Part shown: one piece after another, positions 6,089 through 40,914 of the stretch
Numbering within the stretch: the stretch's first letter is position 1
Layout of the letters: every line of letters starts with the position of its first letter
Origin: Candidatus Moraniibacteriota bacterium
Lineage (GTDB): Bacteria; Patescibacteriota; Minisyncoccia; Moranbacterales; GCA-2747515
Reading direction: 5' to 3'
DNA length: 64,000 bases
Assembly: GCA_016699795.1 (NCBI GenBank)
Contig: CP065011.1
Location: forward strand, 1,075,449-1,139,448
The notes under the pieces: model-generated
Database searches by the model: none
What the model saw: only the letters and a program-made list of their open reading frames with translations
Told to the model about the DNA's origin: nothing
Made by a program: the position numbers and the translations under genes

Positions 6089-6104
6089 AGATAATAAGTG
6101 AAGT

Positions 6105-7613
6105 CTATTTTTTAGGAATTTTTGCTGTTATTCGAAATCTCTCTAGGCCAAACTTTCTTTTCACTTCATCTTTTGAATCAGTATAGCGAACCCGTACATA
6201 AATAAGGGCAGTATCTCCTTTCTCAGCTGTAAAAGTAAAAGAGTATTCTTGAGATTTTCCATCTAACTGAATATAAGGAATTTCTTTCCAATTTTTGGCA
6301 TCATAAGAATATTCTAATGCGATCTGATCTTCATAATTACCGTATTGACTTGCTTGGATAGTCATTTCTGAAAAAGGAGATATTGTTGAAATAGGATACA
6401 TAAAGTATTCTCCCACTTTGGAATCCCCTAAAACTCGGGATTCTTTTGGTTTAAAAGAAATGCTTGGAGTTGCTTCAGAAATATTAGCAAAATCAGAAAT
6501 TGAATTATTACTTCTATACTCATAGCGAAGATAAGGACCAACATCTTCAATTTTTGCACCAGGAAGGAGAAGATTTTTCTCATTTTCTTCAAATGCATGT
6601 CGAATCTGAGCTACAACAAAACCCTCTTTTCCATCATCAGAAGTAACACGAGAAAATTCAAGAGTTCCTTTTTTGTCTTTTTCACGATAGCGAATTCCTA
6701 AAGCATAGCTTTTTCCTGGTTTTAATGAAAAAGGAAATGGAATATCAGACATTCCAGTTTTTTTCTTATATTTATCAATATCTGCTTCTGGAAATGATAC
6801 CGAATGAATAATTTTTTTATCGACAACTTTACTTTCAGGATCATAGCCAAAAATATCGAGAACATAACGTTCGTCAGAAAGAATATCTCCTCGTCTAGCA
6901 GGGATAGAAACTGAATACATAACATCCCCAGGAGAAACAAAAGTTCCCCAAGAAATATAATTAGAACGATCAGGAAAAAAGATCTCTTTTTCAACTTTAT
7001 TATCCACGAAAACACTTGCTATTTGAGATTTTCTTAATAGCGTAGGTTGAAGATTTTTTATAGCAGTTTCATCCGTAATTTTTAATCTTGTGGTAAATAT
7101 ATCTGAAATTATAACTTTTCCTCCTCTCCATCGATCTTCTTGTGTTTCCCCACTTTTTCTAATAATAATGTCGTGATAGAAATCATTCAATTGGAAAACG
7201 AATTCTTTAAAAACTTCTTCTCCGGAACGATCTAACTGTACTATTCCTATTTCTTTCTCTTCCCCCCAATCTGAAATAGCAAGAATATGGAGCTCTTCAT
7301 CAGAGTCTAATGCACGAGCACCGACACCAATACGATACCAATCACCCTCTATAGAATCCAAGATATCAGGATATATTTTCTCTGGAATACTTCCAGAAAG
7401 ATCTGCAGAGATTTCAGATAATTTTTCTTCAGAAACTTTAAGGGCATCATTTTTTCCAAGTTCATCTGTTGGAACAACTACTACATTATACCAAATAGAA
7501 ATTATAAAAATAAAAAGAATAGCTCCATATTTTCCCCTTAAAAATAAGAAGAAATTCTTAAATAAGGAAAAATATTTATGTATCCATTCATAAGAAATCT
7601 TTTTTTCTTTCAT
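6105..7613 (-). CDS. hypothetical membrane-anchored extracytoplasmic protein
   Basis: 502-aa ORF with an N-terminal TM anchor (ILFIFIISIWYNVVVV) and a soluble remainder. Unknown family. Confidence 0.45.
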   Translation of the reverse strand: MKEKKISYEWIHKYFSLFKNFFLFLRGKYGAILFIFIISIWYNVVVVPTDELGKNDALKVSEEKLSEISADLSGSIPEKIYPDILDSIEGDWYRIGVGARALDSDEELHILAISDWGEEKEIGIVQLDRSGEEVFKEFVFQLNDFYHDIIIRKSGETQEDRWRGGKVIISDIFTTRLKITDETAIKNLQPTLLRKSQIASVFVDNKVEKEIFFPDRSNYISWGTFVSPGDVMYSVSIPARRGDILSDERYVLDIFGYDPESKVVDKKIIHSVSFPEADIDKYKKKTGMSDIPFPFSLKPGKSYALGIRYREKDKKGTLEFSRVTSDDGKEGFVVAQIRHAFEENEKNLLLPGAKIEDVGPYLRYEYRSNNSISDFANISEATPSISFKPKESRVLGDSKVGEYFMYPISTISPFSEMTIQASQYGNYEDQIALEYSYDAKNWKEIPYIQLDGKSQEYSFTFTAEKGDTALIYVRVRYTDSKDEVKRKFGLERFRITAKIPKK

Positions 7614-25630: not shown

Positions 25631-25704
25631 GATGTTATGTGTTTTTTATTCTTTTTCCCTCAAAGAAATTTTTGGAAAGGATGCTTTTCTTTTCAAAAAA
25701 ATTC
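25631..25704. repeat. ~70-bp direct repeat, copy B (partner at 25128..25199)
   Basis: See copy A. Copy B overlaps the last codons (...EGLQEFF*) of the minus-strand gene ending at 25693. Confidence 0.8.
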
Positions 25705-26421
25705 TTGTAGCCCCTCAATATATTCTCGAAATGATGTCTTGTTTCGATATTTCTTTTCTAATCGTTCTTTGAGATCAGAGAGTTGCGAATAGTCTGAAAG
25801 AAACCTATCGAATCCTTGCTGATTTTTTGACCACAGCATATTCATATCTTGTTCTAATCCAAGTATTGCTACTGTGGTAATTTCGTTCGCACCCCAGAAA
25901 AAATCTTCATTTTCAGTAACCGTTTGCTCCCCAAAAACATGTTCAAAAACTTTCCACATATGAATCATAAGTATTTCATGTGCGGTAATTCTCGAATGAT
26001 CTTTTGGATCATCAAATATTCATCGAAACACTACATTGTCATTTCTATTACTGATCCCGCGATGAAATGCGCTTAATATCACGCGATACTTCGAAAACTC
26101 CCAGGGAATCTCGGTAAGGGTTTCAATTTTCGAATAAAATACTCGTGAAATCTTTTCCCATTCTTCATGATAGCTACGTTTTACAATCGGAAAAAGCAAT
26201 TGGTGTCGTTCATATATTTCCCCCACAAAAGCTTCGATAGATTGAGCACATACGTCATACTCTTTACACTGCGCGATACGCTTGGCTTCTAAAATATCCA
26301 TACCCGTATCATGCGAAAAACGTAAAGGCTCATCCTTTCCAAAAAAACGCAATCTGACCCAAATCTGAAATGCATCTTTATCTTTATCGATAGAAAAAAG
26401 TGTTTTTTGTATCATACGCAT
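25693..26421 (-). pseudogene. hypothetical protein interrupted by one in-frame TGA (the ORF track splits it as 26020..26421 + 25693..25968)
   Basis: My own minus-strand translation reads ...NDNVVFR-TGA-IFDDPKDHSRITAHEILMIHMWKVFEHV... in a single frame, so the two listed ORFs are one ~241-codon reading frame with one internal stop. Neighbouring long genes have no in-frame TGA, so code-4/25 recoding is excluded. Confidence 0.5.
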
Positions 26422-28689: not shown

Positions 28690-29211
28690 TTATATCTCCA
28701 TTTCTATCTCTAAAATACCTATGTCTCCTTGCGAAAAACGCTCGTCTACAAAACTCTTTCCATTCTCACAAAATCCAAGTTTTTTATAAAACGTAATCGC
28801 TTTATTATTGTAATCTGCCACAGATACAAATGTTTTTTTATTTGGATCAAAAATCTTTTTTCCTTCTTCCCATAGGCGAGTTCCGATACCATGACCTTGA
28901 TACTCTGGAAGTACATAGAGCATTTTGAGAATATTTTGATCATCGTTTTGGAGAAATCGACCCACTCCCACGATATTTGTCCCCTCTTGAGCTACCAAAA
29001 TCTTGAGCGTATCACTTTGATTTTTTATATCCTCCAAACGACGCTGAAGATTTTCTGGGGTATTTTTCTTTTCAAAGAGTTTTTCTATCCATTCTTTGGT
29101 AATACCTAGCGATGTATTGGGGTACGTTACTAGCCATGTCTCATATACAATTTCTCCGATACGAGCGAGATCTTCTTCTTTCGCCTGCCGTACGCGTATT
29201 TCTTTTGTCAT
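28690..29211 (-). CDS. GNAT-family N-acetyltransferase
   Basis: YVLPEYQGHGIGTRLW (acetyl-CoA-binding Q/RxxGxG/A) and AITFYKKLGF. 173 aa. Confidence 0.75.
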   Translation of the reverse strand: MTKEIRVRQAKEEDLARIGEIVYETWLVTYPNTSLGITKEWIEKLFEKKNTPENLQRRLEDIKNQSDTLKILVAQEGTNIVGVGRFLQNDDQNILKMLYVLPEYQGHGIGTRLWEEGKKIFDPNKKTFVSVADYNNKAITFYKKLGFCENGKSFVDERFSQGDIGILEIEMEI

Positions 29212-29316
29212 ATTTTTCTTATGAGTGTTTTTTAAAAAAGATTTCTAAACTTTTTCTATCTCTTGTAATTTCTCCAAACATTCTTTTTTTTCTTTGTTCA
29301 TAGAGGTATATTATTT

Positions 29317-30504
29317 TTATTCTTCTTGAAACGCTTGGGAGAGGACGGATTGTTCGAGGGAGGTGAGACTATGCGTGTTTTGAATATGAAGTTCTCGAAG
29401 TTTTTTGGCTTTCTCCGATATCGCATCTAGTCGATCAACGATTTCTTTTTGTTCAGAAAGAGATGGGAGAGGGATTTTTATTTTTTTAAGTATTGTTTGA
29501 CTTAAATTTGGCTGAGCACCACCCCACGCCTTCAACAAAATATCATTTCTTTTTTTTAAAAGAAAATAATACAAATATTTATTATTTAATTTTTCTTTAT
29601 TCACAGTCATTCCTGCTATTGCTTGGTTTGTGCTCGCATCAATTCCAAGTATACCCGTCTTACCAGCCGTAGCACCATACATAGCAAATAAAACCGCTCC
29701 CTTGGAAAAGATTTTCGCACTACTTTTTTGCACAGCTTCTTTTGAAATTTTTTCTTTTGAATCCAAAATATTTACAGAATCTTTCAATTCTCCTGATTTT
29801 AACCATACAATATCTCCTTTATAATAACTTTCCATTGATCGCTTTGGAGTACCTCCGCTTGTCATTTTTAAAATCGAAGAATTTCCCAACTCTTTTTCCT
29901 CCCACCCTTTCTCTTTTCCTCCCGCAAATATTTTTGAAAGTTCGGCGGGAAGGAGCTGATTGATATCCGACAATGCTTCTTCATTGATTCGTTTGGCGTT
30001 TTGTATCTCCCCCAAAACCCTCTCTAACCTCTTCACAATCCTCTTTTGCTCTTCCAAAGAAGGAAGCGGGATTTCTATTTCCGAACATTTACTTTTATTT
30101 ATAATTGGCACAGTTGTTTTAGAAGATTTACTTTCAAAATCTTTTATCTTAGTCTGAAGAATGTAATATAAATATTCTGAATCTACCAAATTTTTAATAG
30201 GAACAAATGAATTAATTTGTTGATTTGTAGCCATTTCTTTCTTGGCTATGCTCAATTTTCCGATATTACCAATGCAACTCATTAAAACTGATCCTGACGA
30301 TATCCTTCTAATTCCAGACTCATAAAAACCCTTGTTTGATAATTTTTTCTTTGTTTCCAAAATATACTTCCCTTGATCTAAGTCTGATGGTCCTGCCCAC
30401 AAATAAGAATTTCCATAATAATCAATAATAGAAGTCTTTGGAGTATTCCCCGTTATAATCTCACACACTTCCCCAAGTTTTTTTCTTTGCCAATTATTTT
30501 TCAT
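29317..30504 (-). CDS. hsdS: Type I restriction-modification specificity subunit
   Basis: Two target-recognition domains, each followed by a conserved coiled-coil repeat (LPSLEEQKRIVKRLE; LPSLSEQKEIVDRLD). N-terminal KLGEVCEIITGNTP. Confidence 0.9.
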   Translation of the reverse strand: MKNNWQRKKLGEVCEIITGNTPKTSIIDYYGNSYLWAGPSDLDQGKYILETKKKLSNKGFYESGIRRISSGSVLMSCIGNIGKLSIAKKEMATNQQINSFVPIKNLVDSEYLYYILQTKIKDFESKSSKTTVPIINKSKCSEIEIPLPSLEEQKRIVKRLERVLGEIQNAKRINEEALSDINQLLPAELSKIFAGGKEKGWEEKELGNSSILKMTSGGTPKRSMESYYKGDIVWLKSGELKDSVNILDSKEKISKEAVQKSSAKIFSKGAVLFAMYGATAGKTGILGIDASTNQAIAGMTVNKEKLNNKYLYYFLLKKRNDILLKAWGGAQPNLSQTILKKIKIPLPSLSEQKEIVDRLDAISEKAKKLRELHIQNTHSLTSLEQSVLSQAFQEE

Positions 30505-31129
30505 AATGCTTTTTCATGTGTGGAATAAGATTGTCAAAAACATCAATTATTGAGGTTACTGACATTTCCATAAGTGAATTATTTTCAATTTTTTCTCCAC
30601 CTAAACTTTTTGGATGCACAGTATTTCGCAAGGCAACGAGGTCTTGTAAATATTTAATTGCAATATCGGTTTTAAAAAATTTAACTTGTTTGTAAAGCTC
30701 TACTAAATATCCTAAACCTAAATTCTTTGACTTTATTTTTTCTTCTGAAACTTTTTTTAAAAAACAATTTGTAGAACCTTTGTTACATTGATATTGCATA
30801 TAATCCAAAAGCAATCCTTCTACAATTGCTCCGACAATCTGGCAAATTACAAATTTATGATTTCTTTTAAAAATCGAATTGGGTTTTAAAAAAGTATATA
30901 TACTCACATGATAATCTAAAGCCATTCTTAATTCTGCAAGATTCTCTTTTAAAGTTTCGTCACAAATAAAGTCAAATACATTTCTATATCCCGTAAGACT
31001 CTTTGGGGAAATTTTTCCGCTTGGTGAATAATCTCTCCATGTACAATATTTGTCTGGTAAAAATTCCAAATTACCATGAACTTTTTCAAAACTTTCTTCC
31101 AATTCTTTCTTTTTCTTTTTCCAATCCAT
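30494..31129 (-). CDS. hypothetical alpha-helical protein embedded in R-M operon (possible HEPN-like; R-x3-H near C-terminus)
   Basis: Start placed at the ATG at 31129, 2 nt after the stop of the upstream gene. The ORF track extends it to 31219. It contains ALRNTVHP, a HEPN-like Arg/His motif with non-canonical spacing, and overlaps the hsdS start by 11 nt, implying translational coupling. Confidence 0.45.
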   Translation of the reverse strand: MDWKKKKKELEESFEKVHGNLEFLPDKYCTWRDYSPSGKISPKSLTGYRNVFDFICDETLKENLAELRMALDYHVSIYTFLKPNSIFKRNHKFVICQIVGAIVEGLLLDYMQYQCNKGSTNCFLKKVSEEKIKSKNLGLGYLVELYKQVKFFKTDIAIKYLQDLVALRNTVHPKSLGGEKIENNSLMEMSVTSIIDVFDNLIPHMKKHYEK

Positions 31130-31131
31130 AT

Positions 31132-31542
31132 TTATTTTTGAGAAAAATACATCAATCCTGTAAATAATGCTGTAAATATAGTTGCCAAACTCACTAAAAA
31201 CCCCATAATAATCTGCCAATTTCTCACAAACCAGTTTTTTGTTTTCTCTCTTCCTTTTGGAGTAAGGAAGAAAGATTGATTCTTAATTTCTCGACCTTCC
31301 AATAAAACCTCCCTCGCTTCCCCCGTCATTCCATCAATATATCCTTCTCGATAGAGATGCGCCAATGCGTTTGTAATATTCCCCGTTCCACAACCTTCTA
31401 ATTTCCATTTTTTAGGAATGGCATTTTGTAATTCAGTTGCATCCGTGTATGCCTTTTCTTTTGTAAGTTCTTCTATAATTCTAAGAACTTGTATGGTGTC
31501 TAGTTCGAAATAACTCATACTGTTTTTCTTATTTAAAGCCAT
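31132..31542 (-). CDS. PadR-like winged-helix protein with C-terminal transmembrane helix
   Basis: The N-terminal YFELDTIQVLRIIEELTKE...ALAHLYREGYIDG...FFLTPKGRE follows the PadR/wHTH pattern (L..L..EG.I...YY.LT..GR). The C-terminus has WQIIMGFLVSLATIFTALFTGLMYF. The ORF track starts at a TTG (31563); the first ATG is at 31542. Confidence 0.45.
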   Translation of the reverse strand: MALNKKNSMSYFELDTIQVLRIIEELTKEKAYTDATELQNAIPKKWKLEGCGTGNITNALAHLYREGYIDGMTGEAREVLLEGREIKNQSFFLTPKGREKTKNWFVRNWQIIMGFLVSLATIFTALFTGLMYFSQK

Positions 31543-31571
31543 TATTTCACAAAATGGTGACAAAATCCAAT

Positions 31572-31701
31572 TTTGGGTGTACTATGTGTGTAGGCGTAAG
31601 TCCTATCAGGGTTGTTCTCGATGTTCCCATCCATCGGTTGGCAAAAGTCGGGACATAACGGGCCTTGTAGGCAGTCGCCCCCTTCTGGGGGTTTTTGTTT
31701 T
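31572..31701 (+). ncRNA. GC-rich ~130-nt structured element ending in an intrinsic terminator (candidate small RNA); identity unknown
   Basis: Sharp local GC rise in an AT-rich genome. It has an internal TGTAGGC direct repeat and several short stems (CGATG/CATCG; GGGC/GCCC). The 3' end is CCCCC-TTCT-GGGGG-TTTTTGTTTT (31678-31701) on the + strand. No protein-coding potential consistent with the neighbours. Confidence 0.3.
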
Positions 31702-32350
31702 ACAAAAACAACTCATCAAACAAAACTTTTTCTCGAAACACACCGAGCCATTCCCTGTCATTTCTTTCATAGTTTCGGAATATTCCCCACGAAAGCATAT
31801 CTACAACTTGTAATCCTCTATTTTCATGAGATTTACAATGGTCAATATCCAATAAAATACTAGGAGCAAGTCTTCCTTCTAATTGCTTTCTAATATACGC
31901 ATTAAATTCTTCTATCTCTGGCTTTCCCATACATCTATCAAGGATGAATTCTACTCTATCGCCAGAATTTCTTTCAAAAGGTATTTGATCTAAGACTTTT
32001 CGTGCAACATAATTATATACACGAGATTTATTTCTTGTCAGTCTTTCGAAGACTTTCTTTTTATTAAGCGTTATCGAATACACACCAAAACGAACATCTT
32101 TTATCTGTTTATAGAAATATTTTTTTATTTCCAAAGTTGTAGAGGAGCCTTTTAATTCTTCTATTTTTCGTTTTTTGCTCTTTGATTTGTTCAATTTTCT
32201 TCTCAATGTCAGACTTACTGCTTTATGAAGTTTCCTATTTGCATCAAGTGAGCTGACTGCGACTATAGTAATAGTAAAAAACTTTGATGGTCGTTTGTTT
32301 ACGAAATCAAAACCAAGATCTCCACTTTCATCTAAATATAAATGCCACAT
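31700..32350 (-). CDS. DUF3800-family protein
   Basis: The N-terminal MWHLYLDESGDLGFDF matches the hallmark (Y/I)(I/L)DESG motif of DUF3800, and the C-terminal LQVVDMLSWGIFRNYE matches its conserved tail. 216 aa. Confidence 0.6.
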   Translation of the reverse strand: MWHLYLDESGDLGFDFVNKRPSKFFTITIVAVSSLDANRKLHKAVSLTLRRKLNKSKSKKRKIEELKGSSTTLEIKKYFYKQIKDVRFGVYSITLNKKKVFERLTRNKSRVYNYVARKVLDQIPFERNSGDRVEFILDRCMGKPEIEEFNAYIRKQLEGRLAPSILLDIDHCKSHENRGLQVVDMLSWGIFRNYERNDREWLGVFREKVLFDELFL

Positions 32351-32502
32351 ATAAATACTATTTTCTTTGTTTCTTTATTTTGCTATATTATATTTGGTCG
32401 CGAAGGTATATTCGCGCCCATGAAAATTGAGTCTTCTCATAGTGAAAGTCGGCAACATGGCCGTGCGTTGGAAAACCAACCTAGCTAGAGAGGGCTCTTT
32501 TT

Positions 32503-33924
32503 TCATATCTCTTTTTTCAATTCCTCCACCAGTTTCATTATTTCTTTTTCTCTCTCCTCTATCCCTTCAAGAATTTCTTTGGGTTCTCGGTGTATTTCTG
32601 TTTGAGCTGATGCGGGATGTTTACTATCGAGGTTGAAATCTTTTTTTTCTATTTCTTCTCGGGAAACTTTCCAAGCGTATTCGTTTTCCTTTCTATCGTT
32701 CCACCACTTTTTGAGAGGTGTAAATTCCTCATCCGTTATCCCTCGGTTTTTGGTGTATTGAGTCTTGAGATCTTTGGGAAGTGGGAGTTTGTAGTACCAA
32801 ATTTCTTTGGTGGGTTCACCTTTGGTGAAAAAAAGAAGATTCGTGTTTACTCCTGCATACGGACTAAATACCCCTTGCGGAAGTCGAACAATCGTATGAA
32901 GATTGCACGTTTCAAGAAGATGCTTCTTGATTCTCGTGGCAACGCCTTCGGCAAAGAGTACACCATCAGGAAGGACGATTCCCGCTCGTCCCCCATCTCT
33001 CAAAAGATGCACGAAAAGAAAAAGGAATAAAAGCTCTGTCGCTTTGGTTCGAAAGTCCGCAGGAAAGTTTTGCTCTACGCCATCTTTTACCGCTCCACCA
33101 AAAGGAGGATTTGCCACGATAATATCTACACGATCTTTGGCTGTGTATTCTTGATACGATTTGGCAAGCATATCATCATGCTTGATATTGTCGGGAATTT
33201 CTACGCCATGAAGGATGAGATTGGTACTTGCGAGAAGATACGGAAGATGTTTTATTTCGCATCCTCGAATACTCTCGTGAATTTTCTTTCGATCTTCGGT
33301 TGTTTTTTCTTTGGTTTCTTTGAGATATTCTAGAGCGTTTATGAGAAATCCTCCTGTACCACATGCGGGATCAAAAAGAGTTTCTCCTATTTTAGGATCA
33401 AGTGTTTCTATGATGAATTTCGTAAGCGGTCGTGGGGTATAAAATTCTCCATAGCTCCCAGCATTTTGTAGTCCCTTGAGAATCGTTTCATAAATATCAT
33501 TGAGATGGTGGCGATCTTTGTTTTTGGTAAAGTCGATTTCATTTATTTCATTGATCACTTGCCTGAGAAGTGTTCCTGACTTCATATAGTTGTATGCTTC
33601 AGAAAACATTTCCCGAACAAACAAAGCATCTTCCCTTTCTGTTTCGAGTTTTTTGAGTGTAGGGAAAAGCGTTGTATTGACGAAACTCAGAAGCTCTTCT
33701 CCTGTGATTCCCTCTTTGTCACTTGCCCAATTTCGCCATCTGATATTTTCGGGAAAGGGTGAGGAATATGAAAGATTTTCAAGTTCTCGAATTTTTTCTT
33801 GATCATCGAAAATTTTAAGAAACAAGAGCCATACGATTTGTTCGATTCTCTGAGCATCGCCTCCAATTCCTTCATCTTGTCGCATTACATTGCGGATTCG
33901 CTTGATCATTCCTTCTATGGGCAT
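32503..33924 (-). CDS. hsdM: Type I restriction-modification DNA methyltransferase subunit (N6-adenine)
   Basis: SAM-binding FDPACGTGGFL and catalytic NPPFGG. The N-terminal HsdM helical domain is present. 473 aa. Confidence 0.9.
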   Translation of the reverse strand: MPIEGMIKRIRNVMRQDEGIGGDAQRIEQIVWLLFLKIFDDQEKIRELENLSYSSPFPENIRWRNWASDKEGITGEELLSFVNTTLFPTLKKLETEREDALFVREMFSEAYNYMKSGTLLRQVINEINEIDFTKNKDRHHLNDIYETILKGLQNAGSYGEFYTPRPLTKFIIETLDPKIGETLFDPACGTGGFLINALEYLKETKEKTTEDRKKIHESIRGCEIKHLPYLLASTNLILHGVEIPDNIKHDDMLAKSYQEYTAKDRVDIIVANPPFGGAVKDGVEQNFPADFRTKATELLFLFLFVHLLRDGGRAGIVLPDGVLFAEGVATRIKKHLLETCNLHTIVRLPQGVFSPYAGVNTNLLFFTKGEPTKEIWYYKLPLPKDLKTQYTKNRGITDEEFTPLKKWWNDRKENEYAWKVSREEIEKKDFNLDSKHPASAQTEIHREPKEILEGIEEREKEIMKLVEELKKEI

Positions 33925-33927
33925 ACG

Positions 33928-36285
33928 CTATTTTTGTTGTTGGTAAATATGATTTTGTATTTCTTGTACCGCTTCGAGATAGCGATCACGACCACCAAAA
34001 GCTTCGACGATTTCAAATTGTGATCCGAATGTTATAAACGGAGCGACTTTGAGATCTTCTATTCCATCGATTGCTTCTACTCCCTGATCAGCATATTTTT
34101 CCAAAAGAGCTTCGATAACTTTTTGTGCCATTCCTTCATATTTTGTGAAAATGTCTCGTTTTTTTACTTCATCAACTCGTTCTTTTCTTGTAAGCGGTTT
34201 CTTGCCATAGGCAAGGTGCATAATAATATCAAATTCATCTATGTCTTCCATTCCGATTTCTTTTTTGAGTTCGTCAAAAAGTATTCCTTGTTCGATAAGC
34301 TCTTGTATAAGAGTTGTTTTGCGAATGTCTTTATTCCAGTCATTGAGAAAATCTTCTAAATTTTGATATCGATTTTTGAGTTGTTCACTCGCATAGGTTA
34401 TGAGAGATTCTGTAGTGAGCTTTCCTGTTTTTGGATCAATAATAGAAACGACACGATGTATCACATTGAAATCTACTTGTCCTTCTTGTATAACAATTCT
34501 CGTTTTCTTTTTTTCTTCCTCTTCATCTCTTGGAAGAAGTATTTCTTCTTCAGGATATTCTTCTCGTATTTCTTCGGGAGTTTGAGAAGTTTCGTTTATT
34601 TCTTTGGGATCAAGTTCCTCGCTTTCATTGTCTTTTATAATAGCTCGAACGGGCTCACCATCAAAATCTTTATCAGCAAAAAGTCGAGTTGCACCCGAAA
34701 AATCAAGAATAGTAAAATAGTATTTATCAAAATCACTATTGATTCTCGTTCCTCGTCCAATAATTTGCTTAAATTTGGTCATAGAGTTTATGGCACTGTC
34801 AAGAATGATCAATCGACATGTTTGTGCATCTACTCCCGTAGTAAGAAGTTCTGATGTCGTTACAATCGTTGGATAGGGAGATTCGGGGTTGATGAAATTT
34901 TCTATTTCTCTTTTACCCTCTTCTTCATCTCCCGTCATACGCATAATATAGCGACGATTCTTTTTCATCTCTTGGGGATTCCTCTGGACAAGTGCCTGTC
35001 GCATTCGTTCAGCATGTTCGATATTGGCACAAAAGATAATCGTTTTTTGCATGGGGTCAGTCTCTTGAAGATACTCGGTTATTTTATCAGCTACTTCATT
35101 GATACGATCTTCGACAATAATTTTCTTGTTATAATCCGAAACATTGTATACACCATCTTCTATACGATCGCCATCTTGATCTTTTATATATGCATCGGGA
35201 CGCCATTCAATATCTTTGTCCATTATGTAGCGAACAACTCGATAAGGAGCAAGAAAACCATCTTCTATTCCTTGCTTGAGGCTATAGGTATAGACGGGTT
35301 CTCCAAAATATTTATAATTGTCTGCACCTTCTATGGATTTCGGGGTAGCGGTAAGTCCTATATGCGTTGCGTGAGAAAAATAATCCAGGACCTCTCGCCA
35401 TGTTCCATCTTCATTGATCCCTCCTCGATGACACTCGTCGATAACGACAAGATCAAAAAAGTCCTGAGAAAACTCTCGAAAAAGTTGCTTTTCCTCTTCG
35501 TTTCCTGTTATACCTTGGTACAAAGAAATATAGACTTCATACGAATGATCTGCTTTTCTATTTTTGATAAGTGTCATTTTTTCTCCAAAGGGACGGAAAT
35601 CTTTTTGCATTGTCTGGTATGCAAGAGCCTTTCTATCTACAAGAAAAAGAATTCTCTTCTTTGTTCGAGATTTCCAAAGACGATATATAATCTGAAAAGC
35701 AGTATACGTTTTCCCTGTTCCTGTCGCCATCACAAGCATCATCCGTTTCTTTCCTTTGGCAACATGTTCAACAACCTCATTAACAGCTCTTGTTTGAAAA
35801 TATCGGGGAGTTCGTCCACTTGTGTCTATAAAATATTCTTCAGCAACAATGCCTTTTTCTTCTTCGGTTTGAATACCCTTTACTCTAAGATATCGCTCAT
35901 AGAGTTTTTCAGGAGTTGGAAAATTATCCATTTCGATCATAGTTTCTTTCCCTGTAGAAAAATCATATTCCACAAAAGCATCTCCGTTGGTCGCATAACA
36001 AAAAGGAAGTCCTATTTTTTCAGCGTATTTTTTCGCCTGCTCTAATCCATCGAAAACTCTATGTTCATTATCTTTTGCTTCAATTATTGCAAGAGGAATA
36101 TTTGATTTATATTGTAATATATAATCAGCTCGTAATGGTTTACCTCGAGAAACTACAGTTCCACGAACAATAATTCGCCCATCAGTAAAACTCACTTCTC
36201 TTCGTATTTGAGAAGGTTTCCATCCAGACTTTTCAAGGGATGGATCAATTTTTTGTGCTCGTATATCTTCTTCAGAATATTTCAT
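33928..36285 (-). CDS. hsdR: Type I restriction enzyme R subunit (endonuclease/helicase)
   Basis: N-terminal PD-(D/E)xK nuclease region (AIIEAKD), then an SF2 helicase with Walker A (MATGTGKTYTA) and DEAH-like (DECHRG). Its stop is 1-3 nt from the hsdM start. Confidence 0.9.
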   Translation of the reverse strand: MKYSEEDIRAQKIDPSLEKSGWKPSQIRREVSFTDGRIIVRGTVVSRGKPLRADYILQYKSNIPLAIIEAKDNEHRVFDGLEQAKKYAEKIGLPFCYATNGDAFVEYDFSTGKETMIEMDNFPTPEKLYERYLRVKGIQTEEEKGIVAEEYFIDTSGRTPRYFQTRAVNEVVEHVAKGKKRMMLVMATGTGKTYTAFQIIYRLWKSRTKKRILFLVDRKALAYQTMQKDFRPFGEKMTLIKNRKADHSYEVYISLYQGITGNEEEKQLFREFSQDFFDLVVIDECHRGGINEDGTWREVLDYFSHATHIGLTATPKSIEGADNYKYFGEPVYTYSLKQGIEDGFLAPYRVVRYIMDKDIEWRPDAYIKDQDGDRIEDGVYNVSDYNKKIIVEDRINEVADKITEYLQETDPMQKTIIFCANIEHAERMRQALVQRNPQEMKKNRRYIMRMTGDEEEGKREIENFINPESPYPTIVTTSELLTTGVDAQTCRLIILDSAINSMTKFKQIIGRGTRINSDFDKYYFTILDFSGATRLFADKDFDGEPVRAIIKDNESEELDPKEINETSQTPEEIREEYPEEEILLPRDEEEEKKKTRIVIQEGQVDFNVIHRVVSIIDPKTGKLTTESLITYASEQLKNRYQNLEDFLNDWNKDIRKTTLIQELIEQGILFDELKKEIGMEDIDEFDIIMHLAYGKKPLTRKERVDEVKKRDIFTKYEGMAQKVIEALLEKYADQGVEAIDGIEDLKVAPFITFGSQFEIVEAFGGRDRYLEAVQEIQNHIYQQQK

Positions 36286-36314: not shown

Positions 36315-36425
36315 ATCCTACTCCTCCCCCAAGCCAAGATCAAGGAAAAAAAGCTATTTTTCTTTCCTCTTATATTTTTTATTTTAAAAATGAAAAAAAG
36401 CTTAGCTCCCCTTCTTATTTTTTCA
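36315..36425. repeat. ~111-bp direct repeat, copy 1 (partner at 38775..38885, ~92% identity)
   Basis: Direct base-by-base comparison: atcctactcct(c/g)cc(c/t)caagcca(a/g)(g/a)atcaaggaaaaaaagct...aaaagcttagctcc(c/a)cttcttattttttcag. The copy includes the last codons (LKK-stop) of the RhuM-Doc gene. Confidence 0.85.
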
Positions 36426-37374
36426 GCAATTGCAAAATTAACCCGATCATTTTGTCTTTATCTTTGGGATCGCTCTCGGCAACCAAGAGTGTAAGAGCTG
36501 TCAGTGCTTGGGGTGACATTTTGTCTTTGTGTAATATTCCCACTTTGTTCAAAAACCAAACAAAGGCAAACGCTCCACTTCTTTTGTTGCCATCGGTAAA
36601 TGGATGATTTTTGACGAAAAAATAAAGGAGATGTGCGGATTTTTCTTCCAGAGTTTCATATGCATCACGTCCAAAGAAAGATTGAAAAACATTACCCGAA
36701 ATACCAGAAACTGCATCTTTTTGTTTTTCTTGAGCGAATAGTTCTGTTGCTTCTTCTTTCCTTTGTAAATTATATTTCAATGTTGCGATAGCATTTTCTA
36801 ATTCTTTGGCTGTTATTTTTGCTTGTTTTTTGGTCATTCCCCTTTTCGGAAAAGTTGACGTGTCATAGGCATTGAGCGATAACCACGTATCAGCAAACAT
36901 TTTCACAAGCTCCAACGTATCTCCAGCTTTAACATTTCCATTTTTTGGCAAAAGTTTTTGAACCGATTCGATCGCGCGTAGAAATTCATCGTAATTTTTG
37001 GTAATACGTTTTTTGTTTATCGTGTATCCCGTGACAATATGTTGACGTAAAGTCTTGGTCGCCCATTGACGAAATTTTGTAGCATTTACCGAGTTTACAC
37101 GATACCCCACAGAAAGAATCACATCGAGGTCAAAATATTCCACTTGATATGTTTTTCCATCACTGGCAGTTGTTGCAAAAAATGCAACAACTGAATCTCT
37201 GTGTAATTCTTCCTCTTTGAATATATTTTTTATATGACGTGAAATAACTGATTTGTCACGACCAAAAAGATCAGCAATTTGTTGCAAACTTGCCCAAAGG
37301 GTTTCTTTTTTTAGATCACCTTTAAACTCTATTTCACCATTTTTCGACTGAAAAATAATAATCTCTTTTTTCAT
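36415..37374 (-). CDS. RhuM-family protein with C-terminal Fic/Doc domain (Doc-type toxin motif)
   Basis: The N-terminal half resembles RhuM (IADLFGRDKSVISRHIKNIF...ATTASDGKTYQVEYFDLDVILSVGYRVNS..ATKFRQWAT). The C-terminal half carries HPFTDGNKRSGAFAF, the Doc/Fic HxFx(D/N)GNKR motif. Confidence 0.7.
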   Translation of the reverse strand: MKKEIIIFQSKNGEIEFKGDLKKETLWASLQQIADLFGRDKSVISRHIKNIFKEEELHRDSVVAFFATTASDGKTYQVEYFDLDVILSVGYRVNSVNATKFRQWATKTLRQHIVTGYTINKKRITKNYDEFLRAIESVQKLLPKNGNVKAGDTLELVKMFADTWLSLNAYDTSTFPKRGMTKKQAKITAKELENAIATLKYNLQRKEEATELFAQEKQKDAVSGISGNVFQSFFGRDAYETLEEKSAHLLYFFVKNHPFTDGNKRSGAFAFVWFLNKVGILHKDKMSPQALTALTLLVAESDPKDKDKMIGLILQLLKK

Positions 37375-37475
37375 ATATCCAGGTTAAATCCTACATTTTG
37401 GAGTTATTTTTTTATTCCCTGATCCAGGTTTTTTTCTTTCATCTTCTTGTAATATTTTTATAGATTCCACGGAAG

Positions 37476-38519
37476 TTATTTTTCCTCACTATCCGGTACG
37501 AGTTCCAAAAACTTATCAAAATCACTCCTAAAAATTTTATCTTGGGTGATGCGATATATTTCAAACTGTGTCTCTGCGTGGAGCTTGGCTTCTTCGTGGG
37601 TAATTTTACCAACGCCGGTCAAAATCTCTGCTTCGTTGAATTCCAAGAAACCATCCAAACGATTCGCCCAATCCTCCATCGTCATCGGGATACGGCGTTC
37701 TGCCTGAAGCTCGGCATAATCAAGGTACATTGAAACAAGACGCTCCAAAAAATCCATTTCTTTTTGAGTCAGATAGTTTTTTGCGATAGACACATCAAAC
37801 CTTTGTATTTTTCCTTCTGGTGCAGCCTCCCACGAGGTGAGTCCCATATGCTTTTTTTGCGCATTTGCTCGCTTGACTATAAGTTCAGCCGCGGTGTGCC
37901 TATGTACTGCATAATGAAGCTTATTTTGAACCATTTTGAAGAAATCTTTTGTCGTTTTTGCCGATGAGTCATAATCCACACTTGTTGCATAAATATCGGT
38001 CACTTTCTGATAAAACATTCGCTCACTTAGACGTATTTCTCGTATCAATTGCAACTGGCGATCAAAATATTCATCGGTAAACATGTGACCTTTTTTGAGG
38101 CGCTCTACATCCATCGTCCATCCTTGTATGGTATAGTCCTTGACGATTTGACGTGCCCATTTTCGAAACTGCACAGCACGTTCATTTTCTATCTTGAAAC
38201 CCACTGAAATAATAGCTTGGAGATTGTAATGTGCTGTTTTGTAATTCTTACCATCAGTTGCAGTTATTAAGTATTGCTTAATAACTGAATCGTTTAGCTC
38301 ACCATCTTCAAAAAGTTTTTTCAAGTGCTGGTTTATTGCCGGCACGCTAACGCCGTACAATTCCGCCATCATCTTTTGTGTCATCCAAATATTTTCATCT
38401 TCATAGCGCATTTCGATGGATTGCTCCACGTCACCTTTTGTGGCTATAAACGTCAAATATTCAGCAGTAGCTGATGTATGCGATGATACGTGTAACTTTT
38501 TTCCCATTATCTTCTTCAT
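37476..38519 (-). CDS. RhuM-family protein (second paralogue, no Fic motif)
   Basis: ITATDGKNYKTAHYNLQAIISVGFKIENERAVQFRKWARQIVKDYTIQGWTMDVERLKKG is the conserved RhuM core. 347 aa. Confidence 0.7.
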   Translation of the reverse strand: MKKIMGKKLHVSSHTSATAEYLTFIATKGDVEQSIEMRYEDENIWMTQKMMAELYGVSVPAINQHLKKLFEDGELNDSVIKQYLITATDGKNYKTAHYNLQAIISVGFKIENERAVQFRKWARQIVKDYTIQGWTMDVERLKKGHMFTDEYFDRQLQLIREIRLSERMFYQKVTDIYATSVDYDSSAKTTKDFFKMVQNKLHYAVHRHTAAELIVKRANAQKKHMGLTSWEAAPEGKIQRFDVSIAKNYLTQKEMDFLERLVSMYLDYAELQAERRIPMTMEDWANRLDGFLEFNEAEILTGVGKITHEEAKLHAETQFEIYRITQDKIFRSDFDKFLELVPDSEEK

Positions 38520-38774: not shown

Positions 38775-38885
38775 ATCCTACTCCTGCCTCAAGCCAAAAT
38801 CAAGGAAAAAAAGCTGTTTTTTCCCTCTTATATTTTTTATTTTAAAAATGAAAGAAAAAGCTTAGCTCCACTTCTTATTTTTTCA
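38775..38885. repeat. ~111-bp direct repeat, copy 2 (partner at 36315..36425)
   Basis: See copy 1. This copy includes the last codons (LKK-stop) of the FHA-domain gene 38875..40914. Confidence 0.85.
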
Positions 38886-40914
38886 GTGACATCCTTCTCT
38901 TTATTTCGGGGAAAAACCCATAGTCTTTTCGAAAGTTAAAAGCGGGATTTTGAGGATCAACTTGATATTTTAAACATACTCTAGAAAATACCGAATCGAA
39001 ATTAAAATTTGGATCAGTCATTGCATGACGAAAGTTTCTCGCTTCCATAAAAACTTCAGCAAGAATTTTAGTACGTATAGTTCCAAACGATTCATTTCGA
39101 AACAATGGCTCCTCCGCAAATCCAACTCCCAACATTTTTTCGTTTCGTTGATTTTTTACTTCAACAGTAAAACGAGGAACGCCCGTTTCATCGAATCCCT
39201 CTATATTATTTTTGTGTAAATTTTCCAAAATCTGTAAGACTTTTTGTTCTTCTTCGGCATCAAAATAAATCACCATTTTATCAAAACGATTAAATGCCTT
39301 TGCATTTCCGTACAGAGGAATTTTCATTTGACTATGCAAACCGCTCTCATGAAATGCCTCAACTGTCTTAGAAAAAATTTGTTTAACATATTCTGGCTTT
39401 AAATTAAAATAAAGTCTTCCAAGAGAACTCTGATTACGAAAACCTCCATTTACATTACAATAAAGCCAATATCCATTATCTCCGATCATTACCCCCTTCC
39501 CCTTTTGAGATTCTTCCTTTAAATTCTCTCTCATTTTTTTAATTTGAGTAGAATATTCCCATGCCCACCGCTGAACAGTTGCATCATTTTCTTTATATCT
39601 GGGATTATCAATGTTTTTATTATAAAAATCATGATAAAAAAGCTCATCTAAATCACGCCCTTGTTGCAAATCTCTTTCAATTTCCAATTCATGTTTTTTG
39701 GTAAACTCAAAAAATTTTTCGATAGCGAGTTCTTTTTCAGAACTAGATTTTTGAATCTCAATTTGTTCTTTATTTAATCGCCTCGGCCTTTCTACTTGTA
39801 ACGTAGTCCCATTCATAGAGCCTACATCTTCTATAAGCAATTTCTCATCTCGCAACTCTATTCTAAGATGAGCGCGCGAAACAGTATCGGGAAATTGAAA
39901 CCGAAACGCATTATTTCTACCAATAGTAAAGGGTTCGTTTTTTCTAATTCCTTTGTAGCCCATTCTCGGATTTTCTTGATCAAACGTCGCAGGATCAATA
40001 AGAAGATAATCAGCATTCCAACGCAAATCGTTTCGCACATCAATAATTTGCAAGTATTTATTGGCAAGATATACATCAATAGGTATTCCCGAATATTCAA
40101 TTTCTTTCTCTGATCCTTTTAAATTAAACCGCTCTGACAAAATTTCTTTTCCGGAAGTTCCTATTTCCTCTTGTAGCTCTTCTAAAGCTAAGCCGGATTT
40201 TTCTTTAATTCTTTTGACAGCATTTTCAATATCCGAATCAGCACTCTCCGGAAATGCTTGTTTCCAAATTTCAAAAAATGTTTCTTTTATTTGAATTATT
40301 CTTCTTGCTTCATCAGGAGTAAATTCTTGATTCATTGCTGAGAGAATATTCTTCTTTACATAATCTCGCTGAGTTGCTGAAATAGTATGGGGATCTGCTT
40401 TTCTTATCGAAGTAGCAAGGTTTCCGAAAATTCTTATTTTATTTTCTTCAGAAGATGTAGCACCAAATTTCTCATATATTGGACCCAATGCATTTATAAT
40501 GCCAGAAACAGCTTCTCTTTTATACTGTACTTTTTTTTCTTGAACAATTTGATTATATTGTTCTTGTGTCCATCCTTTTTGAAAAAAAACTCCTATTTGT
40601 TCATCGACAACTTCACACAAATCAGTCTGCATATCTTCAATGATTGGATATTTTTTTCGTAATGATTCTACAAAATGATCCACATTGAGTGCATATAGAT
40701 CTTCTTGATTTGGAAAATAACCACGCTCCACCAAAGTCAAAAGCCTTAACGCTCTTTCATTTATTTTTATTGTCTCCACAGCTTTAGTAAAGAAGTCTTT
40801 TTCTGATACAGCTTGTGATTCTGATAAAGTAGAATTAGGCTTCTCGATAAATTCCGAAGAAGATGGGTTTTGAAATTGTTTTATTCTTTCTTCCATATTC
40901 TCTATATTACACAA
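38875..40914 (-). CDS. large FHA-domain protein of unknown function
   Basis: The central FTIGRNNAFRFQFPDTVSRAHLRIELRDEKLLIEDVGSMNGTTLQ is a canonical FHA pattern (G-R...S/T..H......D.GS.NGT). The rest is an ~330-aa helical N-terminus and a ~250-aa uncharacterised C-terminal domain. Confidence 0.55.
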   Translation of the reverse strand: MCNIENMEERIKQFQNPSSSEFIEKPNSTLSESQAVSEKDFFTKAVETIKINERALRLLTLVERGYFPNQEDLYALNVDHFVESLRKKYPIIEDMQTDLCEVVDEQIGVFFQKGWTQEQYNQIVQEKKVQYKREAVSGIINALGPIYEKFGATSSEENKIRIFGNLATSIRKADPHTISATQRDYVKKNILSAMNQEFTPDEARRIIQIKETFFEIWKQAFPESADSDIENAVKRIKEKSGLALEELQEEIGTSGKEILSERFNLKGSEKEIEYSGIPIDVYLANKYLQIIDVRNDLRWNADYLLIDPATFDQENPRMGYKGIRKNEPFTIGRNNAFRFQFPDTVSRAHLRIELRDEKLLIEDVGSMNGTTLQVERPRRLNKEQIEIQKSSSEKELAIEKFFEFTKKHELEIERDLQQGRDLDELFYHDFYNKNIDNPRYKENDATVQRWAWEYSTQIKKMRENLKEESQKGKGVMIGDNGYWLYCNVNGGFRNQSSLGRLYFNLKPEYVKQIFSKTVEAFHESGLHSQMKIPLYGNAKAFNRFDKMVIYFDAEEEQKVLQILENLHKNNIEGFDETGVPRFTVEVKNQRNEKMLGVGFAEEPLFRNESFGTIRTKILAEVFMEARNFRHAMTDPNFNFDSVFSRVCLKYQVDPQNPAFNFRKDYGFFPEIKRRMSLKK

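Follow-up and report, generated by a model that had tools for sequence, protein, structure and literature searches.

We conclude that the spacer between hsdM and hsdS in a Type I restriction-modification (R-M) operon of a Candidatus Moraniibacteriota genome is a variable docking site for accessory units and forms a composite accessory islet. The cargo probably consists of two independent units, one of which carries ORF3, a protein that we infer to be a latent RNase held by the R-M system. Unit A pairs a gene for a DUF3800 nuclease with a DUF3800-V small RNA that is roughly 100 nt long and convergent with it, and the pair is portable. Unit B comprises ORF3, a HEPN protein that is small and stands alone and is preceded only in this lineage by ORF2, a small, translationally coupled and tail-anchored protein. 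The window refers to the whole 64,000-nucleotide stretch of DNA that was analysed, and L-numbers (L001, L002 and so on) refer to the related loci compared with it; L001 represents a sister lineage. All operon and cargo genes of the window are on the minus strand and the DUF3800-V RNA is on the plus strand, as follows:

29317..30504, minus strand: hsdS, Type I specificity subunit, 395 aa (Methylase_S twice, E=3.9e-58; PADLOC Specificity_I)

30494..31129, minus strand: ORF3, 211 aa, with the R168-N-T-V-H172 motif (ALRNTVHP) and invariant E104, D72, Y73 and P83

31132..31518, minus strand: ORF2, 128 aa, NCBI IPN70_05170, hypothetical protein

31557..31702, plus strand: DUF3800-V sRNA unit, opposite to the genes, with a promoter-like site, the RNA motif and an intrinsic terminator

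31700..32350, minus strand: DUF3800-a, 216 aa (PF12686, E=1.3e-14, 55.6 bits against a cut-off of 21)

32396..32419, minus strand: conserved palindromic element GGGCGCGAATATACCTTCGCGACC in the hsdM-DUF3800 spacer

32503..33924, minus strand: hsdM, Type I methyltransferase, 473 aa (Pfam N6_Mtase, E=1.4e-72, and HsdM_N)

33928..36285, minus strand: hsdR, Type I restriction subunit, 785 aa (Pfam ResIII, Helicase_C, EcoEI_R_C and HSDR_N)

The host operon is intact, as an earlier note made from the sequence had stated, with hsdR, hsdM and hsdS all full-length by Pfam and PADLOC. The hsdR product matched PADLOC REase_I (E=9e-286) over profile positions 9-801 of 807, the hsdM product matched MTase_I over nearly its full length (E=8e-186), and hsdS contained two Methylase_S stretches, as expected for two target-recognition domains.

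ORF2 and ORF3 are conserved in relatives (66-82% and 77-98% amino acid identity, respectively), indicating that both are genuine genes. The description of ORF3 in the earlier note proved accurate: it encodes 211 aa with an ALRNTVHP motif, and its stop codon overlaps the hsdS start by 11 nt (ATGAAAAATAA), an overlap also present in L001. Scans of ORF3 against Pfam, NCBIfam, PADLOC and PHROG returned nothing significant, and PDB sequence and profile searches gave only noise. An exhaustive search of representatives yielded 32 clusters of homologues in 1.84e9, whereas k-mer searches recovered only 2-5 relatives. R168, H172, E104, D72, Y73 and P83 were invariant in 30 sequences of 22-77% identity, and the residue after R was N or D. 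About 55 N-terminal residues, with P25, W31, Y48 and F54, form an extension that is also conserved in the family. Two of its members weakly matched HEPN families (DUF4145, E=0.013; RiboL-PSP, E=0.077).

The structure of ORF3 was predicted by AF2. A model from a 3-sequence alignment (pLDDT 42) was replaced by one from the 30-sequence alignment (pLDDT 91.2, pTM 0.88), and the latter model shows the HEPN fold that the earlier note had suspected, with a four-helix up-down bundle as its core. In this model, R168 ends helix 155-168, H172 lies in the next loop, and E104 lies in helix 85-116 (helix 2). These are the positions described for HEPN active sites, in which R stands at the helix end, H follows in an Rx4-6H arrangement, and an acidic residue is found in helix 2 (PMC3710099). 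The R-to-H spacer of ORF3 is three residues (Rx3H), compared with the defined HEPN range of Rx4-6H. The top structural neighbours of the model were HEPN toxins of HEPN-MNT systems (5yep, 7ae2 and 8xdj; 10-15% sequence identity), from which ORF3 differs by its N-terminal extension, a helical insert (117-154), an unlike motif spacing and a locus that has no MNT nucleotidyltransferase partner. Foldseek searches of PDB and BFVD returned no significant match. ORF3 is the first described member of a rare, previously unclassified HEPN family, one that is missed by current Pfam, NCBIfam, PADLOC and PHROG models and whose spacing is shortened to Rx3H.

The ORF3 family is very rare, and the named genomes sampled are mostly Patescibacteria (CPR). 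Related loci were searched for with a 9-sequence subset of the family alignment. In 11 of 15 informative lineages, the ORF3 homologue was located within or adjacent to R-M genes of Type I, II, IIG-like or III. This count includes many short contigs, and the lineages may be less independent than they seem where contigs are related. Stop and start codons of the family often overlap in these operons, so that overlapping reading frames wire it into Type I, II and III restriction operons, mostly in Patescibacteria (CPR). The contexts were as follows:

Type I R-M: window and L002; L001 and L020

Type III R-M in the order mod, ORF3 homologue, res, with 4-nt and 1-nt overlaps: L004-L011, L012/13 and L017

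Type III R-M in the order res, ORF3 homologue, with an 11-nt overlap: L018 and L024-27

Type II R-M: L015 (Tsp45I) and L035 (HinfI/BglII)

Eco57I-like / MmeI-like methyltransferase neighbours: L021 and L023

Dam/GmrSD/DpnII cluster: L037

Four of the 15 informative lineages placed the gene away from R-M genes; the neighbours there were a TIR protein, a GIY-YIG/SLFN helicase, a UvrD-like helicase and a tRNA synthetase. A 194-aa second gene in L036 was considered as an ORF3 paralogue and rejected, as it falls outside the family. The tblastn search for ORF3 in plasmids was negative, as were searches with the query P0021 in viral contigs, plasmids and phages.

ORF3 is most likely a PrrC-style R-M guardian with predicted RNase activity. 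In the mechanism we propose, ORF3 would be a latent metal-independent RNase that is produced with the R-M subunits and kept inactive by them. A phage that blocks or overwhelms restriction would release ORF3, and the released protein would stop translation and abort the infection. This scheme would follow the logic of PrrC minus its ATPase domain. The PrrC and RloC anticodon nucleases likewise have a HEPN-type RNase gene within a restriction operon and likely share the latent-RNase guard logic; prrC is embedded in a Type IC locus, according to a review. They fuse an N-terminal ABC-ATPase to a C-terminal HEPN nuclease, whereas ORF3 is 211 aa long without an ATPase (no Pfam or PADLOC match) and has no sequence similarity to them. 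In addition, the ORF3 family accompanies Type II and Type III systems and not only Type I. The earlier note had invoked prrC as a precedent for insertion between hsdM and hsdS, where ORF3 lies; prrC itself is reportedly located between hsdS and hsdR. Several features speak against a guardian role, namely the Rx3H spacer, which is shorter than the HEPN-defining Rx4-6H, the lack of the ABC-ATPase regulatory domain of PrrC/RloC, and the four of 15 informative lineages that are not beside R-M genes.

R-M-linked HEPN proteins have already been described in at least 16 clades, DUF4145 among them (Anantharaman et al. 2013, PMC3710099). The label "uncharacterised" given in the earlier note is therefore limited to the ORF3 family and does not extend to the concept. 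ORF3 resembles the described proteins in its HEPN fold, in an R...H motif with a polar residue after R, in the acidic helix-2 residue, in being embedded in several R-M operon types and in the PrrC-like back-up role proposed. It differs from them in that no Pfam HEPN model recognises its family, in Rx3H against Rx4-6H, in the N-terminal extension of about 55 residues and in its great rarity. The general picture, in which HEPN RNases cluster with R-M systems, is unaltered. ORF3 joins the short list with PrrC and PARIS as a compact, domain-minimal candidate R-M guardian, and one small protein could, in principle, be tested against three R-M types.

ORF2 had been described as a PadR-type protein that ends in a transmembrane helix. 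The helix was supported (residues 101-126, Kyte-Doolittle hydropathy 2.07), but the PadR assignment was not supported by any profile. No PadR/HTH match was obtained for ORF2 in Pfam at E<=1, nor for four homologues at E<=5; NCBIfam and PADLOC gave no match, PHROG nothing significant, and the PDB profile search was without hit. The N-terminal part appears wHTH-like by pattern only. The conserved start of ORF2 is the ATG at 31518, matching the NCBI annotation; therefore, the gap between DUF3800 and ORF2 is 181 nt and not a tight junction. The 2-nt ORF2-ORF3 and 11-nt ORF3-hsdS junctions are as the earlier note gave them. ORF2 was seen only with ORF3, in the window, L001, L002, L003 and L020, and is specific to the Moraniibacteria lineage.

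Possible roles of ORF2 are to regulate locally, to act as an antitoxin or to tether ORF3 to the membrane. As an antitoxin, it would form with ORF3 a classical toxin-antitoxin pair, in which a HEPN toxin and a DNA-binding antitoxin would stabilise the R-M operon and would not sense inhibition of restriction. We regard this as possible but unlikely. The two genes are coupled, with a 2-nt gap in the window (ORF2 end 31132, ORF3 ATG 31129) and a 4-nt overlap in L001, and always occur together in Moraniibacteria loci. ORF2 evolves faster than ORF3 (82% versus 98% identity between the window and L002), and the HEPN-MNT toxins that neighbour the ORF3 model in structure also fit a toxin. However, ORF2 is absent from all other ORF3-family loci, most of which are flanked by R-M subunits instead. 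It has a transmembrane anchor and no detectable DNA-binding or MNT domain, and the neighbouring genes that were scanned or Pfam-annotated, both in the window and in the homologous loci, showed no nucleotidyltransferase domain.

Among the three proteins of the cargo, only the DUF3800 protein was recognised in the profile searches, where ORF2 and ORF3 gave nothing significant. The PF12686 match agrees with the DUF3800 assignment made earlier from the YLDESG motif, and the protein also matches phrog_9243 (E=1.2e-20, PHROG). DUF3800 proteins are characterised by a DE motif near the N-terminus and a QxxD motif near the C-terminus (PMC7736814). Both were read from the translation of DUF3800-a, the former as D7-E8 in the N-terminus MWHLYLDESGD and the latter as QVVD at residues 181-184. 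An RNase-H-like fold has been reported for DUF3800 in the literature.

The GC-rich RNA-like element of the earlier note is real and corresponds to Rfam RF02964, DUF3800-V (31585-31683; 46.8 bits versus a gathering threshold of 37.4, E=7.6e-08), but it lies on the plus strand, antisense to the genes. The promoter scan placed a promoter-like site (GTGACA-17-TACTAT) at 31557-31585 on the plus strand, and the terminator scan placed an intrinsic terminator at 31677-31692 plus a T run, which abuts the DUF3800 stop codon; 17 nt separate the end of the RNA motif from this codon. The folding energy was -32.8 kcal/mol for the plus strand versus -25.4 kcal/mol for the minus strand, and compensatory changes were found in 8 of 30 pairs among five RNAs. 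A Type III toxin-antitoxin (ToxIN-like) system, which has tandem RNA repeats upstream of the toxin gene, was rejected: positions 29000-33000 contain one copy of the RNA and no such array. As in the DUF3800 RNA motifs of Weinberg et al. 2017 (RF02964), the gene adjoins a structured RNA that scores above gathering, an intrinsic terminator comes after the RNA, and the RNA may be on the strand of the gene or on the opposite one. The present pair differs in that it is nested within the operon of a Type I R-M system, with its RNA antisense to the transcript of that operon, and in that the sister lineage keeps the RNA and exchanges the DUF3800 subfamily. The locus gives these unexplained RNA motifs a compact natural setting, and the retention of the RNA while DUF3800 was exchanged, together with its antisense orientation to the operon transcript, suggests concrete experiments.

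The independence of the two units was supported by several comparisons. First, no DUF3800, ORF2 or RNA was found near ORF3 homologues outside the Moraniibacteria lineage (about 14 other lineages); the three genes do not form a conserved module. Second, DUF3800-a and the RNA occur alone on the Tenderia (gammaproteobacterial) plasmid CP013100, where the homologue is 43% identical and has the same tail-to-tail antisense RNA. Third, the DUF3800 gene of L001 belongs to an unrelated subfamily (DUF3800-b). The DNA homology between L001 and the window begins only at the RNA and continues through hsdS; a segment homologous to the palindromic element lies between DUF3800-b and the RNA, i.e. on the other side of DUF3800. 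Finally, L002 has an additional, unrelated 236-aa gene between ORF3 and hsdS. The RNA was also present in a phage contig, with no DUF3800 within the 2.4 kb examined there. The viral-contig scan and tblastn against phages were negative for DUF3800-a.

These observations tell against the model of the earlier note, in which DUF3800, the RNA, ORF2 and ORF3 would act together as a single integrated defence system associated with R-M, and we consider that model improbable. The order of the four parts is indeed kept co-linear in the window, L002, L003 (partial), L001 and L020, L001 retains a DUF3800 gene beside the RNA despite the swap, and DUF3800 is found beside retron and CRISPR defence loci elsewhere in the literature. 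However, the loci with the full set belong to one narrow lineage (66-98% protein identity), and the spacer takes unrelated cargo such as the 236-aa gene of L002.

We also weighed whether ORF3 might be a non-catalytic R-M accessory of HEPN fold, acting as an assembly, nucleotide-binding or regulatory subunit and not as a toxin. The non-canonical R-H spacer agrees with this, and the close translational coupling points to assembly with R-M subunits in stoichiometric amounts. However, R-M systems of the same types are known to function without such a subunit. Moreover, R, H and E are invariant at the active-site positions across 22-77% identity, and this signature has been tied to RNase activity (PMC3710099). 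A non-catalytic role is thus very unlikely. Equally hard to credit is a single RNA-gated guardian circuit of the sRNA, DUF3800, tail-anchored ORF2 and the HEPN protein. In such a circuit, base pairing of the sRNA with the hsdM-hsdS spacer region of the operon transcript would yield a duplex for DUF3800 to process, and the resulting amounts of ORF2, HEPN protein and HsdS would couple HsdS supply to an RNase of abortive infection; the 11 orphan DUF3800 RNA motifs would then have a first function, if this reading is true.

A direct repeat flanking the cargo (29276-29318 / 32353-32395, 72%) was rejected as a transposition footprint, since it is AT-rich and of low complexity. Two further genes lie upstream of hsdR:

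36415-37374, minus strand: RhuM-N/Fic gene (Pfam Virulence_RhuM and Fic; PADLOC PDC-S23/PDC-S05)

37476-38519, minus strand: RhuM gene (Pfam Virulence_RhuM; PADLOC PDC-S23/PDC-S05)

Both are frequent neighbours of R-M systems and are located outside the cargo.

The window, part of a Candidatus Moraniibacteriota MAG, holds an intact Type I restriction-modification (R-M) operon with three cargo genes between hsdM and hsdS:

33928-36285, minus strand, hsdR of the intact Type I operon
32503-33924, minus strand, hsdM of the same operon
31700-32350, minus strand, DUF3800 gene (PF12686, E=1.3e-14; DE and QxxD motifs)
31132-31518, minus strand, ORF2, 128 aa, conserved start ATG at 31518
30494-31129, minus strand, ORF3, 211 aa
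29317-30504, minus strand, hsdS of the same operon

We re-read the gene positions, the 2 nt separating ORF2 from ORF3, and the 11 nt (ATGAAAAATAA) shared by the hsdS start and the ORF3 end; the coordinates and motifs reported for the cargo in the earlier note are therefore correct. That observation is confirmed, and its interpretation, a single defence module, is borne out in part. Directly upstream of hsdR lie a RhuM-N/Fic gene and a RhuM gene (36415-38519; PADLOC PDC-S23 and PDC-S05), and genes of the RhuM type also occur close to the ORF3 homologues of L015/L028 and L026. The 679-aa protein encoded at 38875-40914 has both an FHA domain and a HopA1 effector-family domain (E=4.5e-21). A single 242-aa ORF of the close relative L002 (8646-9374) is represented in the window by separate 133-aa and 91-aa ORFs at 25693-26421, which suggests a frameshift, pseudogene or assembly error in the window.

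The proposed recurrent association with R-M genes held for ORF3, whose homologues have an R-M context in 11 of 15 informative lineages, but DUF3800, ORF2 and the DUF3800-V RNA were absent from ORF3-family loci outside the Moraniibacteria lineage. The contexts are Type I (window, L002, L003; L001, L020), Type III as mod/X/res with 4-nt and 1-nt overlaps (L004-11, L012/13, L017) or res/X with an 11-nt overlap (L018, L024-27), Type II (L015/L028, Tsp45I; L035, HinfI/BglII), Eco57I-like and MmeI-like methyltransferases (L021, L023), and a Dam/GmrSD/DpnII cluster (L037). The other four lineages adjoin a TIR protein, a GIY-YIG/SLFN helicase, a UvrD-like helicase or a tRNA synthetase. Small, mutually unrelated membrane proteins beside ORF3 homologues in L014, L015, L017, L021, L022, L002 and L004 could be due to chance. 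In L017, a Candidatus Nomurabacteria contig, some 5 kb separate a LOOT RNA (RF03000, 13702-13820, 84.3 bits) from the Type III operon with the ORF3 homologue.

ORF3 had no match in Pfam, NCBIfam, PADLOC or PHROG, and when 1.84 billion representatives were searched exhaustively with an HMM, the family came to just 32 clusters. Across an alignment of 30 sequences (22-77% identity), D72, Y73, P83, E104, R168 and H172 are invariant, and the family shares the pattern R-[ND]-x-[IVM]-H. AlphaFold on this alignment gave a pLDDT of 91.2. Helix 155-168 of the model ends with R168, H172 is first in the next loop, and E104 lies inside helix 85-116, the predicted positions being those described for HEPN active sites (PMC3710099). 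The R-to-H spacer falls one residue short of the Rx4-6H definition (PMC3710099). Foldseek found no significant match in PDB or BFVD. We count the HEPN fold as shown at the level of the predicted model, and the R and H of the ALRNTVHP pointed out in the earlier note are among the invariant residues. ORF3 is a new addition to the already known R-M-linked HEPN proteins.

Of the readings considered, the one with most support makes ORF3 a guardian RNase and backup of R-M that would act like PrrC (PMC3710099); its activity, silencing and trigger are inferred, whereas the invariant residues and operon embedding are plainly observed. ORF3 would be produced together with the R-M subunits, which would keep it silent, and blocked restriction would release it. 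A rival reading, for which the short spacer speaks, makes ORF3 a non-catalytic accessory. Another takes ORF2 and ORF3 for a toxin-antitoxin pair; the close spacing of the two genes speaks for it, and the confinement of ORF2 homologues to Moraniibacteria loci against it.

ORF2 (identical to NCBI protein IPN70_05170) has one C-terminal transmembrane helix, supported by hydropathy. Its PadR label did not hold: no PadR or other HTH profile matched it in Pfam, NCBIfam or a PDB profile search, with homologues also scanned, and a winged-helix nature is suggested solely by sequence pattern. Between the window (31132-31518) and L002 (4612-4998), identity is 82% for ORF2, 98% for ORF3 and about 99.5% for DUF3800. 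The ORF2 changes are concentrated in the N-terminal half and may reflect diversifying selection.

The GC-rich element noticed among the genes is real: it is the Rfam DUF3800-V RNA (RF02964; 31585-31683), which scores 46.8 bits where the gathering cut-off is 37.4 and lies on the plus strand, antisense to all cargo and operon genes. Four features support this strand. First, a promoter-like GTGACA-17-TACTAT stops exactly at the first base of the motif, its -35 element and spacing being kept in L001. Second, the motif is followed by an intrinsic terminator of canonical form (GCCCCCTTCTGGGGGT and a T run, 31677-31702), which abuts the DUF3800 stop codon. Third, predicted folding energy is -32.8 kcal/mol on the plus strand versus -25.4 on the minus strand. 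Finally, in five RNAs drawn from three widely differing genomes, the loops GTAAGTCCT and TCCATCGGTTGGC are invariant and compensatory changes occur at 8 of the 30 pairs. DUF3800 RNA motifs have been described, their function there unexplained (Weinberg 2017). DUF3800 is reported as an RNase-H-fold nuclease that accompanies type VII retrons and some Cas12 and Cas13 loci.

L002 keeps the window gene order, as a third rival reading, a single integrated four-part system (DUF3800, RNA, ORF2 and ORF3), would have it, with an extra gene between ORF3 and hsdS (5654-6364). This gene encodes a 236-aa membrane protein that has two hydrophobic helices and lacks a Pfam match. The HsdS target-recognition domains of L002 differ from those of the window, and together with the insertion this points to the spacer as a hot spot of cargo turnover. 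The sister lineage L001 and L020 retains RNA-ORF2-ORF3-hsdS (ORF3 77% identical to the window), but its DUF3800 belongs to a different subfamily, DUF3800-b (25% identity to the window subfamily, DUF3800-a, over just 36 residues), and DNA homology with the window begins exactly at the RNA terminator. In the window a conserved palindrome, GGGCGCGAATATACCTTCGCGACC, is found upstream of DUF3800-a (32396-32419); in L001 it is downstream of DUF3800-b, before the RNA (~895-920). It might be an operator or hairpin.

On a Candidatus Tenderia electrophaga plasmid, a DUF3800-a homologue (43% identical) is accompanied by this RNA too, likewise antisense and immediately behind the stop codon, with no R-M genes, ORF2 or ORF3 near the pair. 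The high-GC phage contig L033 (IMGVR_UViG_3300037067_018877) has a DUF3800-V RNA at 995-1092 (37.8 bits, barely over the cut-off), antisense to the flanking 146-aa and SSB genes; no DUF3800 gene was found in the 2.4 kb covered. The L002 gene, the DUF3800 exchange, the palindrome shift and these plasmid and phage RNAs argue, from sequence comparison, that DUF3800-a is portable together with its RNA and that the hsdM-hsdS spacer serves as a variable docking site. The exchange and the solitary plasmid pair speak against the single module of the earlier note and make the integrated system an unlikely rival; the cargo is composite, with ORF3 adjoining a known, unexplained DUF3800/RNA pair. A further structured-RNA family adjoins DUF3800 on the Ligilactobacillus salivarius plasmid NZ_CP101531.1 (L031), where three salivarius-1 copies (RF03030, 62-71 bits; 4284-4737 and 4986-5645) closely precede a DUF3800 gene.
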